From positions 800,001 through 864,000 of the forward strand of contig CBDFLQ010000006.1 of assembly GCA_965249275.1 (NCBI GenBank): a DNA stretch of 64,000 nt, written 5' to 3'. The notes below the pieces were generated by a model. The model was not told the DNA's origin, did no database searches, and worked only from the letters and a program-made list of their open reading frames with translations. The position numbers and the translations under genes were made by a program. This document shows, in pieces, positions 8,149 through 11,314 of this stretch; the first letter of the stretch is position 1, and the number at the start of each line of letters is the position of its first letter. This DNA is from Dehalococcoidia bacterium. GTDB taxonomy: Bacteria > Chloroflexota > Dehalococcoidia > Plut-88900.

Positions 8149-8818
8149 TTCCTCCGAGATAAAAATCTCACCTTCGATTCTATCTGCAGATTTTGGGCGT
8201 CTCGGTGAGCAGGTTGCCGAGGCCTCGGAGTCGGGGGCCGACTACATCCACGTCGACATCATGGACGGCCACTTCGTCCCCAATCTCACGATTGGGCCGA
8301 TCATCGTATCGGGGATTCGGCCATGGACCGAACTGCCCCTGGACGTTCATCTGATGATAGAGGAACCGGACAGGCTGATTCCAGACTTCGCCAAGGCGGG
8401 CGCAAACATACTTACCGTCCATCCGGAGGCGTGTCGACACCTCCACCGGGTTATCTACCAGATCAAGGACCTGGGCGTGAAGGCAGGGATATCGCTCAAT
8501 CCCGGGACTCCCGCTTCCGTGCTTGAACCCGTGATATCCGACGTTGACCTAGTTTTGGTGATGACTGTAAACCCGGGATTCGGGGGGCAGAAGTACATTC
8601 ACAGCGTGACGAGCAAGATCGCCAAGGTGCGGCAGATGCTGGATGAGGCGGGGTCGGGGGCGGAGTTGGAGGTGGACGGGGGAATTAATGCAGAGACGGC
8701 GTCGAAAGCCGTGGAGGCAGGGGCGAGGGTACTGGTGGCCGGGTCGGCGGTGTTCAACGATCGGGACACGGTGGCCGGGTCAATTGCCAGAATTCGGGAG
8801 AGCCTCGGGCAGGCTTAG
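8141..8818 (+). CDS. rpe: Ribulose-phosphate 3-epimerase
   Basis: [44 protein letters not shown]. Confidence 0.97.
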
Positions 8819-8823
8819 GCTGC

Positions 8824-10335
8824 CTAGTTTAGCAATTCGTCGATTATCGGACCGAGCTGTCCAGCGGTCAGCGATCCAATCCGCTTGATTGACTGTCCAC
8901 CACTACTAATGATGAAGGCGGGCTGAGTGAAGATGCCGTTGGCTTGCGCGGCGGCTCGGTCTTCTTCCAAGAATTTCTGGTACCTCTGCTCTTCCATGCA
9001 AGCGGTAAATTGGGGCACGTTCAGACCCAGAGTCTGTGCCAAGCTGATCTGGCCTTGGACGCTCCCGGAGCCGCTTCGAATTCGGGCGTCATGAAACTCC
9101 CAGAACTTATCTTGCTCACCGGCGCACTCCGTTCCCAGAGACATGATTCTCGAGGCGGGACCGAAAGTGGTCCGGTGGCGGAGCACCAGCTTTACCTGAC
9201 CTTGGTCTATGTATTGTCGCTTTATCTCCTGGGCCGGTCCAAGGGCCCAATTCCTGCAAACGCCTCATTGAAAGTCGCTGAATTCCTCCAGCGTTACGGG
9301 TGCGTCCAGGGACCCGAGAATGTTCCATGGCCGTCCGGAGGGTAAAGGCTCAGGGGTGGGAATTGGGGTTGGGATAGGAGTTGGCGTAGCAGTTGGGACG
9401 GGGGTTGGAGAGGGAGTCGGGACTGGAGTTGATGAGGCGGAGGGGACTGAGGTAGGAGTTGGGGCGGGTGACGTAGCGATGGGCGTAGGCACAGGCATGG
9501 GGGCGGGGGTCGATGTCGGGACAGGGATTGCAGTAGGTGTTGGGGTTGGTGCAGGAGTCGGTACAGGCGTAGCCAGCAACTCATCAATTACTGCGGATAT
9601 TTCTTCGAAGGAGGGTGATCCGTCGTATTTTGTTCCAGTTTGGTTGGGGTCGGTGGACAGGACGAAGATGGTGGGTGTGACCGAGACTTCGTTCCGCAGG
9701 GCCAGATTTATGTCTCTTTGAATGACGCCGTCGTAGGTTCTGGCTTCCATGCAAGCCGAGAATCGGCCCGTGTCCAGGCCAAGGTCTTCGGCGAACCCTT
9801 CGAGTCTTTCCACCCCTCTGCCGCCCTCGCCCTGTTTTTCGTAAAGAGTGTCATGGTACTGCCAGAAAGAGCCCTGTTCTCCCGCACACTCGGTGGCGTG
9901 GGCCGCCAAGTATGAATCATCGTTGATGTGAGGGAAATGGAAGTAGTTCAGGTTCACCAGCCCGGTTTCGACGTATACCTTCTTTACTTCGAGGGCCGCA
10001 CCACGGGCCCAATGCTTGCAACCGGGTCAGAGGAAGTCGCCGAAATCGGCTATGGACACGGAGGCATCCGACGAGCCAAGGACATTCCAGTCCCGGGTCG
10101 TTGGGGGTGCGTCCTGCGTGGAGTCGGGTGGAGGGGTGTCGGTGGGAGGAGCGTCGGAGGAGGCCGAAGTCGATGGAGGGACGAGGGTGTTAGTGGGGAC
10201 CGGCGCGCCGGTAGATGTAGGATCAACTATCTCAGGGTCTGACGAACAGGCCCATGAAACTATAGCAAGGGTAGTTATACAAAATAGGAGGATGCCGAGT
10301 CGGGTGAATGTCAGGCGTCGGGGGAGAATGGACAT
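8824..10335 (-). CDS. Candidate di-selenoprotein: lipoprotein with two DsbA/thioredoxin-fold domains (DFL-U-PGC and DFQ-U-GVC) joined by a Pro/Thr linker
   Basis: ORFs 10027..10374, 9265..9957 and 8824..9186 share one frame and are separated only by TGA at 10027-10029 and 9265-9267, each at the first position of CxxC. Readthrough gives ...[36 protein letters not shown] and ...[34 protein letters not shown]. Signal peptide ends SWAC; alternative GTG start at 10374. Confidence 0.88.
9230..9249 (-). promoter_or_regulatory. Putative SECIS hairpin for UGA at 9265-9267
   Basis: mRNA UGGGCC-CUUGGACC-GGCCCA starting +16 after the UGA. Confidence 0.7.
9993..10010 (-). promoter_or_regulatory. Putative SECIS hairpin for UGA at 10027-10029
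   Basis: mRNA GGGCC-CGUGGUGC-GGCCC starting +17 after the UGA. Confidence 0.65.
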
Positions 10336-10373
10336 TTGAGAAGACCCGTGTCCCAGCATTGGCGCTCGGGCCA

Positions 10374-11132
10374 CTAGTACGCGGAGCCCAGATATTCGTC
10401 TATGACTGCGGAAACCACGTCGAAGGCGCGTGCCCCGACGAACTTGGTCATCTGATCGCTGCTCAGGATGAAGATAGTTGGCTGCGTGGTTACGCCATCC
10501 TCTCGAGCCTGAGCCAAGTCCCCGTCGACAATGTGCTCATAGGTCTCGTTTTCCATGCAGGCGGTGAACTTGGGAATGTCCAAGCCGATGGTATTGGCAC
10601 GAGCTATTTGCCCCTGGACGCCTATCTCCCTGGTCCGCTCCTGGAATATCGCGTCGTGATATTTCCAGAATTCACCCTGCTCACCCGCACACTCGGTGCC
10701 TTGAGCCATCAGGCGCGATTCGGGACCCAGGACGGCGTAATGGCGGTATTCCACCTTGACCCTGCCGTCGTCCACGTAGGTCGATTTGATCTCCTGGGCC
10801 GTTCCAAGGGCCCAGCGCCTACAGCCGGGTCATTGGAAGTCACTATAGTCCAAGACGGTGACCGACGCGTCCGCCGAGCCGAGGACATTCCATCCCCTGC
10901 CATCAGGGTCAAGGGTGATCACCGATAAGGCAGTCGGTGTGGCAGCGGGCTGGGCCGTGGGGTCAGGGTCGGCATCCGGTGCGGTAGTAGCAGACGGGGC
11001 CTGGGTGGCAGTGGGGTCGGGAGAATCGGTTGATCCGCCACAGGCCCAAGCAGCCCCAGCGACAAGCGCGCAGAGGAGCAACACCACAGCGGGCGCAACC
11101 GTGCGTCGGCGGAGGAGGGCAGACAAAGTCAA
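10374..11132 (-). CDS. Candidate selenoprotein: DsbA/thioredoxin-fold lipoprotein (DFQ-U-PGC)
   Basis: ORFs 10830..11132 and 10374..10775 share one frame; readthrough of TGA 10830-10832 gives LGSADASVTVLDYSDFQ*PGCRRWALGTAQEIKSTYVDDGRVKVEYRH; ECAGEQ-x2-FW and TQP cis-Pro loop; signal peptide with RRR ending AWAC. Confidence 0.88.
10794..10815 (-). promoter_or_regulatory. Putative SECIS hairpin for UGA at 10830-10832
   Basis: mRNA CUGGGCC-CUUGGAAC-GGCCCAG, perfect 7-bp stem starting +15 after the UGA. Confidence 0.72.
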
Positions 11133-11314
11133 GATGCTTGCTTGTACTGGGTCCTGAGGCAGCGGGTGCAGACCTTCATCCGCTGCCGCTTGCCATTTAT
11201 CATCAGCCGCACGGGGTGAACGTTCGGCCTGTACATCCGGGGCGTGTGCCTTTTGGAGTGGCTTACGTTCCTGCCGAAGCGGGGAATCTTGTTACATATT
11301 TCGCACTTCGCCAA
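11129..11314 (-). CDS. rpmB: 50S ribosomal protein L28 (Zn-ribbon type)
   Basis: AKCEICNK...GRNVSHSKRHT...PNV...VCTRCLRT; probable TTG start at 11314. Confidence 0.95.
   Translation of the reverse strand: MAKCEICNKIPRFGRNVSHSKRHTPRMYRPNVHPVRLMINGKRQRMKVCTRCLRTQYKQAS

Follow-up and report, generated by a model that had tools for sequence, protein, structure and literature searches.

Why should three TGA codons in one short region each stand exactly where a thioredoxin-fold enzyme keeps the first cysteine of its active site? The question is raised by a stretch of 64,000 nucleotides from the genome of a Dehalococcoidia bacterium of the Chloroflexota (NCBI GenBank assembly GCA_965249275.1, contig CBDFLQ010000006.1, positions 800,001 to 864,000), referred to here as the window, whose numbering is used unless another contig is named. 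On the minus strand between positions 8824 and 11132, a listing of open reading frames (ORFs) under translation table 11 gives five fragments, at 10830..11132 (100 amino acids), 10374..10775 (133), 10027..10374 (115), 9265..9957 (230) and 8824..9186 (120), and standard annotation splits the region accordingly, as the original prediction for this DNA had anticipated. When TGA is instead read as selenocysteine (Sec, U), the five fragments merge into two open frames that contain no other stop, here called genes A and B. Our answer, which we hold with high confidence, is that the locus uses programmed UGA-to-Sec recoding at three homologous sites to make exported, lipid-anchored thiol-disulfide oxidoreductases.

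Translation of the recoded frames bore out the claim that the five fragments constitute two genes, at the coordinates originally proposed. Gene A (10374..11132, minus strand; 253 codons) starts at a TTG at 11132, encodes 252 residues with a single Sec at U101, and closes with a TAG at 10374-10376; its product is a candidate single-domain DsbA/BdbD-like selenolipoprotein precursor. Gene B (8824..10374, minus strand; 517 codons, U116 and U370) would encode a two-domain precursor of the same type. Its ORF opens at a GTG at 10374 and ends with a TAG at 8824-8826, and comparison with the N-termini of orthologues makes the ATG at 10335 its likely start (503 residues). The three Sec codons, all on the minus strand, lie at 10830..10832 in gene A (context DFQ-U-PGC), at 10027..10029 in the first domain of gene B (B1, U116 of the ORF; DFL-U-PGC) and at 9265..9267 in its second domain (B2, U370 of the ORF; DFQ-U-GVC), and each occupies the position of the first Cys in a D-F-x-C-x-x-C thioredoxin-fold site.

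The similarity to known proteins runs straight through these codons. Pfam Thioredoxin_4 (PF13462, gathering cut-off 23.2 bits) spans the TGA of gene A with 89.7 bits (E = 3.1e-25) and matches gene B in two stretches that run across both of its TGAs (158.8 bits, 1.8e-46), in agreement with the proposal that each frame continues past its TGA into DsbA/BdbD-like sequence; PF01323 (DSBA) gives weaker scores of 30.9 bits for gene A and 50.0 bits for gene B. The best sequence match among solved structures is BdbD of B. subtilis (3eu3; 8.5e-14 by phmmer), and in the alignment the first Cys of the BdbD CPSC motif stands opposite the U of gene A, and its A-T-P proline loop opposite T-Q-P. For the gene A domain, an AlphaFold2 model built from an alignment of 18 rows (predicted local distance difference test, pLDDT, 83.7; predicted template modelling score, pTM, 0.81), places a strand at residues 16-22 of the model, U26 at the N-terminus of a helix (27-45), an insert of five helices at 62-136, and P143 just ahead of a strand at 144-149. 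The best Foldseek matches to this model are P. aeruginosa DsbA2, C. diphtheriae DsbA/TsdA and BdbD (E ~1e-10, query template modelling score, TMq, 0.69-0.76), while DsbG structures (TMq 0.53-0.57) and FrnE-type structures rank lower. The products of genes A and B are predicted on this basis to belong to the DsbA/BdbD structural class, a thioredoxin fold with a helical insert. Two additional cysteines (in ECAGEQ and F-[TS]-x-C) are invariant across the 18-row alignment, and we would guess that they form a structural disulfide.

Both proteins also appear to be built for export. Motif recognition by eye and by regular expression picked out a putative lipoprotein signal peptide in gene A at 11040..11132 (minus strand), with a basic n-region (RRR), a hydrophobic core and a lipobox-like A-W-A-C whose cysteine, Cys31, is encoded at 11040-11042 (...GAAWA-C-GGS), and another in gene B at 10246..10335 (minus strand; ...VSWA-C-SSD, lipobox Cys at 10246-10248). 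In each case the lipobox motif is followed by a Pro/Thr-rich tether. The pattern [A/I/V]-A-C-G-G-S was matched in eight of the nine gene A orthologues of the genus, with none found in the ninth (L050), and also in G010 and G011, genera of the same family; for gene B the regular expression found a lipobox (A-W-A-C-S-S) only in the orthologues from G006 and G008, the S-W-A-C variant of the window having been read by eye. Lgt is encoded in the same genome, and the two products are predicted to be lipid-anchored. Within gene B the translation shows a further Pro/Thr-rich linker of ~75 residues between the two catalytic domains (approximately 9340..9570, minus strand), and similar linkers occur in a Cys-containing paralogue of the same genome (described below) and in the homologous proteins P0003 and P0006.

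We then asked how faithfully the three TGAs have been kept. A protein search that took in 31 related genomes recovered the locus in all eight other genomes of the genus, so that each of the nine has a gene A bearing a single TGA and a gene B bearing two, at protein identities to gene B of 56-94%. The motif D-[FY]-x-U-x-x-C is found in every one of the 27 domains, and the two recoded frames carry no stops at other positions, which agrees with the expectation that the TGA would be conserved in relatives. Recurrence of the same three TGAs in 8/8 congeners is not a matter of chance, and the argument that three independent nonsense mutations are implausible stands. The codons past each TGA are under strongly purifying selection: over codons +1 to +60 the ratio of nonsynonymous to synonymous substitution rates (dN/dS) is 0.125 in A, 0.063 in B1 and 0.131 in B2, with a mean dS of 0.97-1.25. 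The whole stretch is also covered by contigs from three further runs; of their 179 differences 40 were listed, and not one of these 40 lies on a TGA codon.

Beyond the genus, U is retained in G010 and G011 (DFQ-U-PHC), and the more distant G017 has Cys at the same position (DFL-C-PHC). The genome under study itself encodes a paralogue that pairs Cys with U (DFQ-C-PAC; contig C5, 155718-156464, locus L079, with orthologues at L080-L083) and shares the lipoprotein, Pro/Thr-tether and domain layout of genes A and B. The predicted pairing of UGA with Cys in Cys-type homologues is thus seen in BdbD (CPSC), the paralogue (CPAC) and G017 (CPHC). (Seventeen loci were scanned with a motif filter; L053, L054, L056, L057 and L058 had no passing site and were left out.) In the tree, A, B1 and B2 are each monophyletic over the nine genomes of the genus (bootstrap 99-100%), which indicates that three lineages have retained Sec from a time before the genus diversified. 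The clade of Cys paralogues falls among the Sec clades, under midpoint rooting only, and its position hints at a conversion from Sec to Cys.

A recoded UGA in a bacterium calls for a hairpin shortly downstream, and each of the three sites has one resembling a selenocysteine insertion sequence (SECIS). All are on the minus strand: that of gene A (10794..10815) has a 7-bp stem, CUGGGCC/GGCCCAG, beginning 17 nt after the U of UGA and closing an 8-nt loop, CUUGGAAC; that of B1 (9993..10010) a 5-bp stem, GGGCC/GGCCC, with an 8-nt loop, CGUGGUGC; and that of B2 (9229..9250) a 7-bp stem, UUGGGCC/GGCCCAG, including one G-U pair, with an 8-nt loop, CUUGGACC. The three G+C-rich stems all lie 17-19 nt past the UGA, and the loops carry GG or GU. 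At the codons that form the stem (+7, +8 and +10 to +13) the synonymous difference drops to 0-0.08, against ~0.4-0.5 in the surrounding codons and 0.44 at the loop codon +9. Three distinct stem sequences stand at the same distance in different lineages, namely CUGGGCC.., GCGGCUCA-GGU/GGC-UGAGCCGC and CGCCCU-CGGGCC-AGGGCG, the second and third from other Dehalococcoidia lineages; the second covers the codons for F-A-A-Q-V-E-P-R. In a comparison of 45 Sec-type sites (41 distinct) with 24 Cys-type sites, collected with a loosened motif filter, a hairpin free of interruptions, of -6 kcal/mol or better and with the centre of its loop 25.5-31.5 nt after the codon, was present in 35 of the 41 distinct Sec forms and in 2 of the 24 Cys forms; flanking control windows had no such excess (9/41 Sec vs 9/24 Cys, and 1/41 vs 3/24), and the six weak Sec forms have interrupted stems.

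The genome also carries genes for making and using selenocysteine. SelA (452.6 bits), SelB (369.4 bits, full length, covering positions 2-580 of 581) and SelD (388.7 bits) all score above their curated cut-offs. The selD gene (contig C2, 14217-15140, outside the window) has an in-frame TGA of its own in the context CAG-U-ASK, which we take to be the known Sec/Cys position of SelD, and by its sequence the product is a Sec-type selenophosphate synthetase. The complete set of selA, selB and selD, with selD itself carrying a TGA, implies a working Sec pathway. (The small contig C2 also bears a T-box leader, L024:7657-7882, which scores 116.8 bits, above the gathering score.) Elsewhere in the genome, 6 of the 11 peroxiredoxin-family (AhpC-TSA) ORFs that exceed the cut-off contain one in-frame TGA each, all outside the window: C5:502612-502980, C5:503285-503647, C5:59594-59875, C6:934032-934409, C6:87679-88035 and C7:1025641-1026021. 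Two of these ORFs are adjacent. In five the TGA stands at or beside a redox motif of the form [T/S]-x-x-U or U-x-x-C (FTVG-U, FTGG-U, FSVL-U, W-U-PYC and C-U-VNC), and in the sixth the context is GGGN-U, with no recognisable redox motif; these ORFs probably encode further selenoproteins. The genome gave no match to PF10262 (SelW-like), and its three matches to PF02627 (CMD) are all without TGA.

The component that escaped detection is tRNA-Sec, so the suggestion to look for the Sec machinery was answered for selA, selB and selD and went unanswered, in this assembly, for selC. ARAGORN reports 44 tRNAs, with tRNA-Sec, tRNA-Asn and tRNA-Ile(GAU) not among them, a set of gaps that fits an incomplete assembly; blastn-short and nhmmer searches of the assembly with a congener's tRNA-Sec as query found nothing, and Rfam models run over 60 kb around selA and selD returned a T-box, a tRNA and a match of the tmRNA model to a tRNA-Ala only. 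The best match to the Rfam tRNA-Sec family (RF01852, 48.1 bits) proved to be tRNA-Ser(UGA). ARAGORN at a lowered threshold produced hundreds of false tRNA-SeC calls, including a recurring one of 85 nt that lies inside an insertion-sequence (IS) element and is not a tRNA. All eight congeners, in contrast to this assembly, have a tRNA-Sec (65.8-67.3 bits); in all five whose tRNA region was examined, ARAGORN likewise called it tRNA-SeC, with a TCA anticodon. The assembly, of 7 contigs, is 87% complete and 2.90 Mb long, where its closest relatives have 3.15-3.43 Mb; the 20 kb around the tRNA-Sec of the closest relatives G002 and G005 have no counterpart in it. We attribute the missing tRNA-Sec to an assembly gap because the assembly is 87% complete and these flanks are missing too, an explanation that is inferred rather than demonstrated.

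Two repeats came to light in the course of these searches. The IS-like element behind the 85-nt false call is a repeat of ~1.06 kb and 97-100% identity (contig C7, 346772-347828) with at least 10 more copies, at C3:7843, C6:1, 56205, 65033, 281650 and 524490, and C7:168697, 452090 and 999572, two further ones having 90% identity, all outside the window; it holds a transposase-like ORF of 329 amino acids, of integrase-core type as judged by eye. Separately, a stretch of ~250-850 bases near the tRNA-Sec of congener G005 (L087:300-1290) matches ~60 places in the present assembly at 70-88% identity, which suggests a large dispersed repeat or a gene family in these genomes.

Several observations weigh against recoding of the UGAs as Sec. 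Apart from the tRNA-Sec that ARAGORN, Rfam, blastn-short and nhmmer all failed to find in this assembly, they concern mostly the hairpins: the minimum free energy (MFE) z-scores of the three 57-nt stretches are not significant (-0.79, +0.74 and -1.51); covariation among 27 genus sequences equals that of shuffles (89.4% vs 89.3% paired, with one double change only), the pairs being almost invariant in this set; Sec and Cys forms are not told apart by the MFE of the full stretch folded at each site (p = 0.26); and an Rfam scan of 8700-11300, with E up to 10, returned four chance-level matches, none of them to a SECIS family. The p-value of the positioned-hairpin comparison is overstated, because the position window was picked after the Sec forms had been seen and the sequences are kin. 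Finally, the sole support from an RNA library consists of two short contigs of a close relative, with 90-99% identity to gene A, in a metatranscriptome labelled as sponge metagenome (X18; record 10 corresponds to 10679-10883, includes the TGA at 10830-10832 and has a depth of 3.46, and record 9 to 10447-10644). These contigs weakly suggest expression, amounting to presence in an RNA library, short of proven transcription, and the habitat label is no proof of source.

What else could the three TGAs be? They might be genuine stops in decayed or split genes, or sequencing or assembly errors for TGC or TGT, which would account for the five fragments under table 11 and sit comfortably with an assembly lacking tRNA-Sec. 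Yet the same three codons recur in nine of nine independently assembled genomes, the frames are free of other stops, dN/dS after each TGA is 0.06-0.13, the contigs of the three further runs leave the TGAs unchanged among the differences listed, and a protein split at its CxxC site would have no functional thioredoxin fold; we regard this explanation as exceedingly improbable. Hardly more credible is a genome-wide reassignment of UGA to Trp, Gly or Cys. In-frame TGAs are admittedly frequent in this genome (three here, one in selD and six in AhpC-TSA ORFs), but TGA terminates 355 of 1331 stop-to-stop frames of at least 350 codons genome-wide and 14 of 50 such frames of at least 250 codons in the window, which means that the code is not reassigned and that TGA is an ordinary stop, as originally proposed. 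One example adjoins the locus: rpmB (ribosomal protein L28; 11129..11347, minus strand; Pfam Ribosomal_L28, 6.8e-20), directly upstream of gene A, ends in a TGA that overlaps the TTG start of gene A (the C-terminus of L28 also lies upstream of gene A in congeners G001, G002 and G003). Moreover, apart from tRNA-Sec, tRNAs with a UCA anticodon were found neither in the congeners nor here, nine of the ten in-frame TGAs stand at or beside a redox-site or SelD motif (the exception being GGGN-U), and there was no sign of many conserved genes continuing past TGA at non-redox positions.

A subtler possibility is that the UGAs are recoded mostly as something other than Sec, by near-cognate read-through or by Cys carried on tRNA-Sec, or that termination dominates. 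Insertion of Sec typically has a low efficiency, and the product of gene B depends on it twice. Against this stand the complete selA/selB/selD set with its own TGA in selD, the hairpins at SECIS distance that are specific to the TGA forms, and the long-term retention of TGA at positions where one change would give TGC or TGT and where a Cys paralogue exists; we consider this outcome unlikely, if less so than the other two. The case for programmed UGA-to-Sec recoding in anchored thiol-disulfide oxidoreductases, as first put forward in the original prediction, is carried by the 27/27 conserved TGAs, the purifying selection, the positioned hairpins and the presence of selA, selB and selD.

Under programmed recoding, three DsbA/BdbD-fold domains would be exported as lipoproteins on Pro/Thr-rich tethers, each with its N-terminal active-site Cys replaced by Sec. 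The UGA would be decoded by SelB and Sec-tRNA(Sec), the in-coding G+C-rich hairpin ~17-19 nt past it would act as the bacterial SECIS, and gene B would require two Sec insertions per polypeptide. The mature proteins would lie at the outer face of the cytoplasmic membrane and act on exported proteins by thiol-disulfide exchange, using a U-x-x-C selenenylsulfide/selenol-thiol couple, an extracytoplasmic activity that we propose because of the DsbA/BdbD fold and the export signals.

In which direction would such enzymes work? DsbB (PF02600) and VKOR (PF07884) were found in none of the nine genomes of the genus, which are 87-93% complete by marker count and in six cases consist of a single contig. 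A gene for CcdA (DsbD_TM), in turn, lies directly beside lgt (L084, C7:582338-585844). (A second DsbD_TM match with an identical score occurs on the small contig C4, at 8584-9090, and C4 may therefore duplicate part of C7.) As DsbB and VKOR were not found in the genus and a CcdA conduit is present, we lean slightly towards a CcdA-fed reductase/isomerase or a cysteine-protecting role over a DsbB-independent oxidase, and would give this assignment about an even chance of being correct. It is possible, with somewhat lower probability, that genes A and B encode DsbA/BdbD-type oxidases of exported proteins that are re-oxidised by O2, quinones or small oxidants in place of DsbB or VKOR. The solved structures that come nearest (P. 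aeruginosa DsbA2, C. diphtheriae DsbA/TsdA and BdbD) belong to oxidases or to proteins of the DsbA class, and the missing DsbB and VKOR suit a partner-free enzyme; conversely, the CcdA next to lgt is the usual feeder of reducing pathways, U-x-x-C thioredoxin-fold selenoproteins are discussed mostly in reductive or antioxidant terms in reviews, and the completeness of the genomes limits what the negative search for DsbB and VKOR can say. A bolder proposal, which we consider rather doubtful, is that Sec lets the tethered DsbA-fold domains run extracellular oxidative folding or isomerisation without a dedicated membrane oxidase. The selenenylsulfide would then be re-formed directly by O2 or small oxidants, and the two-Sec tandem of gene B might serve as a covalently linked 'dimer' analogous to DsbC/DsbG. 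If true, Dehalococcoidia would possess an expanded extracytoplasmic folding system that depends on selenium and needs no partner.

How far does this kind of protein extend? A domain similar to the NCBIfam model NF041057 ('Rcas_1661 family thioredoxin-like (seleno)lipoprotein'), which is the best NCBIfam match of both genes, occurs at E = 1e-15 or better in 50 of 121 sampled Dehalococcoidia genomes. Forty-one of the 94 matches contain one in-frame TGA (counted by hand); they are distributed over 17 of the 121 genomes, with up to six per genome and up to five TGA-bearing domains side by side, as in G069, and the U-x-x-C position was verified at 16 sites outside the genus. These numbers point to a sizeable extracytoplasmic selenoproteome in the class. 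Another family of Dehalococcoidia has arrays of two to five adjacent Sec-type domains of this protein family (loci L088, G069:C15:36800-42200; L089, G110:C1:771700-776000; L090; and L091), each with a conserved hairpin that differs from those here, GCGGCUCA-GGU-UGAGCCGC, at the same distance from the UGA; in L089 two U sites share one frame of 1127 codons without TAA or TAG. A search of 5.8 billion predicted proteins with the gene B protein gave no full-length gene B, the best match of the same architecture being a three-domain Cys form at 27% identity; only eight proteins were returned, Pro/Thr-rich words having crowded the candidates, and the search says little about the spread of the family.

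What the locus adds is ordinary in kind, moderately interesting, and overturns nothing in current knowledge. It contributes three exported Sec sites to a genome with a Sec-type SelD and six TGA-bearing peroxiredoxin-family ORFs, and since standard gene callers break its two genes into five fragments, proteins of this lineage will be systematically mis-called. Less ordinary are the tandem polypeptide with two Sec residues and the failure to find DsbB or VKOR in nine of nine genus genomes, which together make the system a reasonable test case for what selenium brings to a DsbA-fold enzyme. Its novelty is reduced by the fact that listings of the family go back to the mid-2000s and that selenium-rich Dehalococcoidia are already on record: the BSepDB paper describes two Dehalococcoidia metagenome-assembled genomes with 49 and 46 selenoproteins. 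Searches of the literature retrieved nothing under the name Rcas_1661, no Sec-containing DsbA among the papers listed on selenenylsulfides, DsbA and oxidative protein folding, and nothing relevant among those listed on sponges, Chloroflexi and selenoproteins.

Among described selenoproteins, the nearest relative is the 'DsbG-like' U-x-x-C protein, which reviews place in the Thioredoxin_4 family with one Sec per protein and which a table in a 2026 review gives as NF041057, again with one Sec; a bacterial survey counts four DsbA-like and two DsbG-like selenoproteins. The likeness extends to PF13462, the U-x-x-C site, the lipoprotein-type N-terminus and the Chloroflexota setting. The difference lies in gene B, which fuses two Sec domains where the review tables give one Sec; the main tables for the DsbG-like/NF041057 family hold no two-Sec fusion. 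Against the equivalog cut-off of NF041057 (190 bits), gene A scores 147.2 bits, gene B reaches 249.9 bits only as the sum of two stretches, single domains in a six-frame search score 108-139 bits, and none of the 121 sampled Dehalococcoidia genomes attains it, scores that suggest a sister subfamily rather than the curated equivalog. Since the NF041057/DsbG-like family is known and tandem Cys-type forms exist, genes A and B belong to a known kind of selenoprotein, of which they are new members, perhaps forming a sister subfamily. The label 'DsbA-like' of the original prediction accordingly suits the fold, which is DsbA/BdbD-like, but not the family, which the literature calls 'DsbG-like' (Thioredoxin_4, NF041057) and keeps apart from PF01323/COG2761. 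The latter is the 'DsbA-like' family of a Sargasso Sea study, which reports a U-x-x-C site, Sec/Cys pairing and a SECIS with conserved loop guanosines; both are U-x-x-C selenoproteins of the DsbA superfamily, but they fall in separate Pfam families, as reflected in the PF01323 and PF13462 scores of genes A and B (30.9/50.0 vs 89.7/158.8 bits).

With BdbD (3eu3/3eu4), C. diphtheriae DsbA/TsdA and MdbA, the proteins predicted here have in common a thioredoxin fold into which helices are inserted, an active site where a helix begins and a proline loop, and the fold matches of the gene A model to BdbD and the C. diphtheriae DsbA-like oxidases reach template modelling scores of 0.74-0.76. BdbD works with the DsbB homologue BdbC, and it and the other Gram-positive DsbA-like oxidases have a Cys-x-x-Cys site, whereas here the first Cys is replaced by a predicted Sec and DsbB and VKOR were not found. 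In E. coli, the thioredoxin-fold proteins DsbG and DsbC act outside the cytoplasm; each functional unit contains two catalytic domains, and a DsbD-type membrane protein keeps the proteins reduced. Genes A and B, by contrast, lack an N-terminal dimerisation domain and begin with a signal peptide and a Pro/Thr linker, the two domains of gene B are joined covalently by such a linker, and the DsbG model NF008657 gives them 16.3 and 22.2 bits against a cut-off of 124. The same tandem layout is found in the Cys-type multi-domain homologues P0003, with three CPxC domains, and P0007, which share the lipoprotein-like N-terminus, the tandem Thioredoxin_4 domains and the Pro/Thr linkers, and differ in that every one of their active sites is Cys-x-x-Cys.

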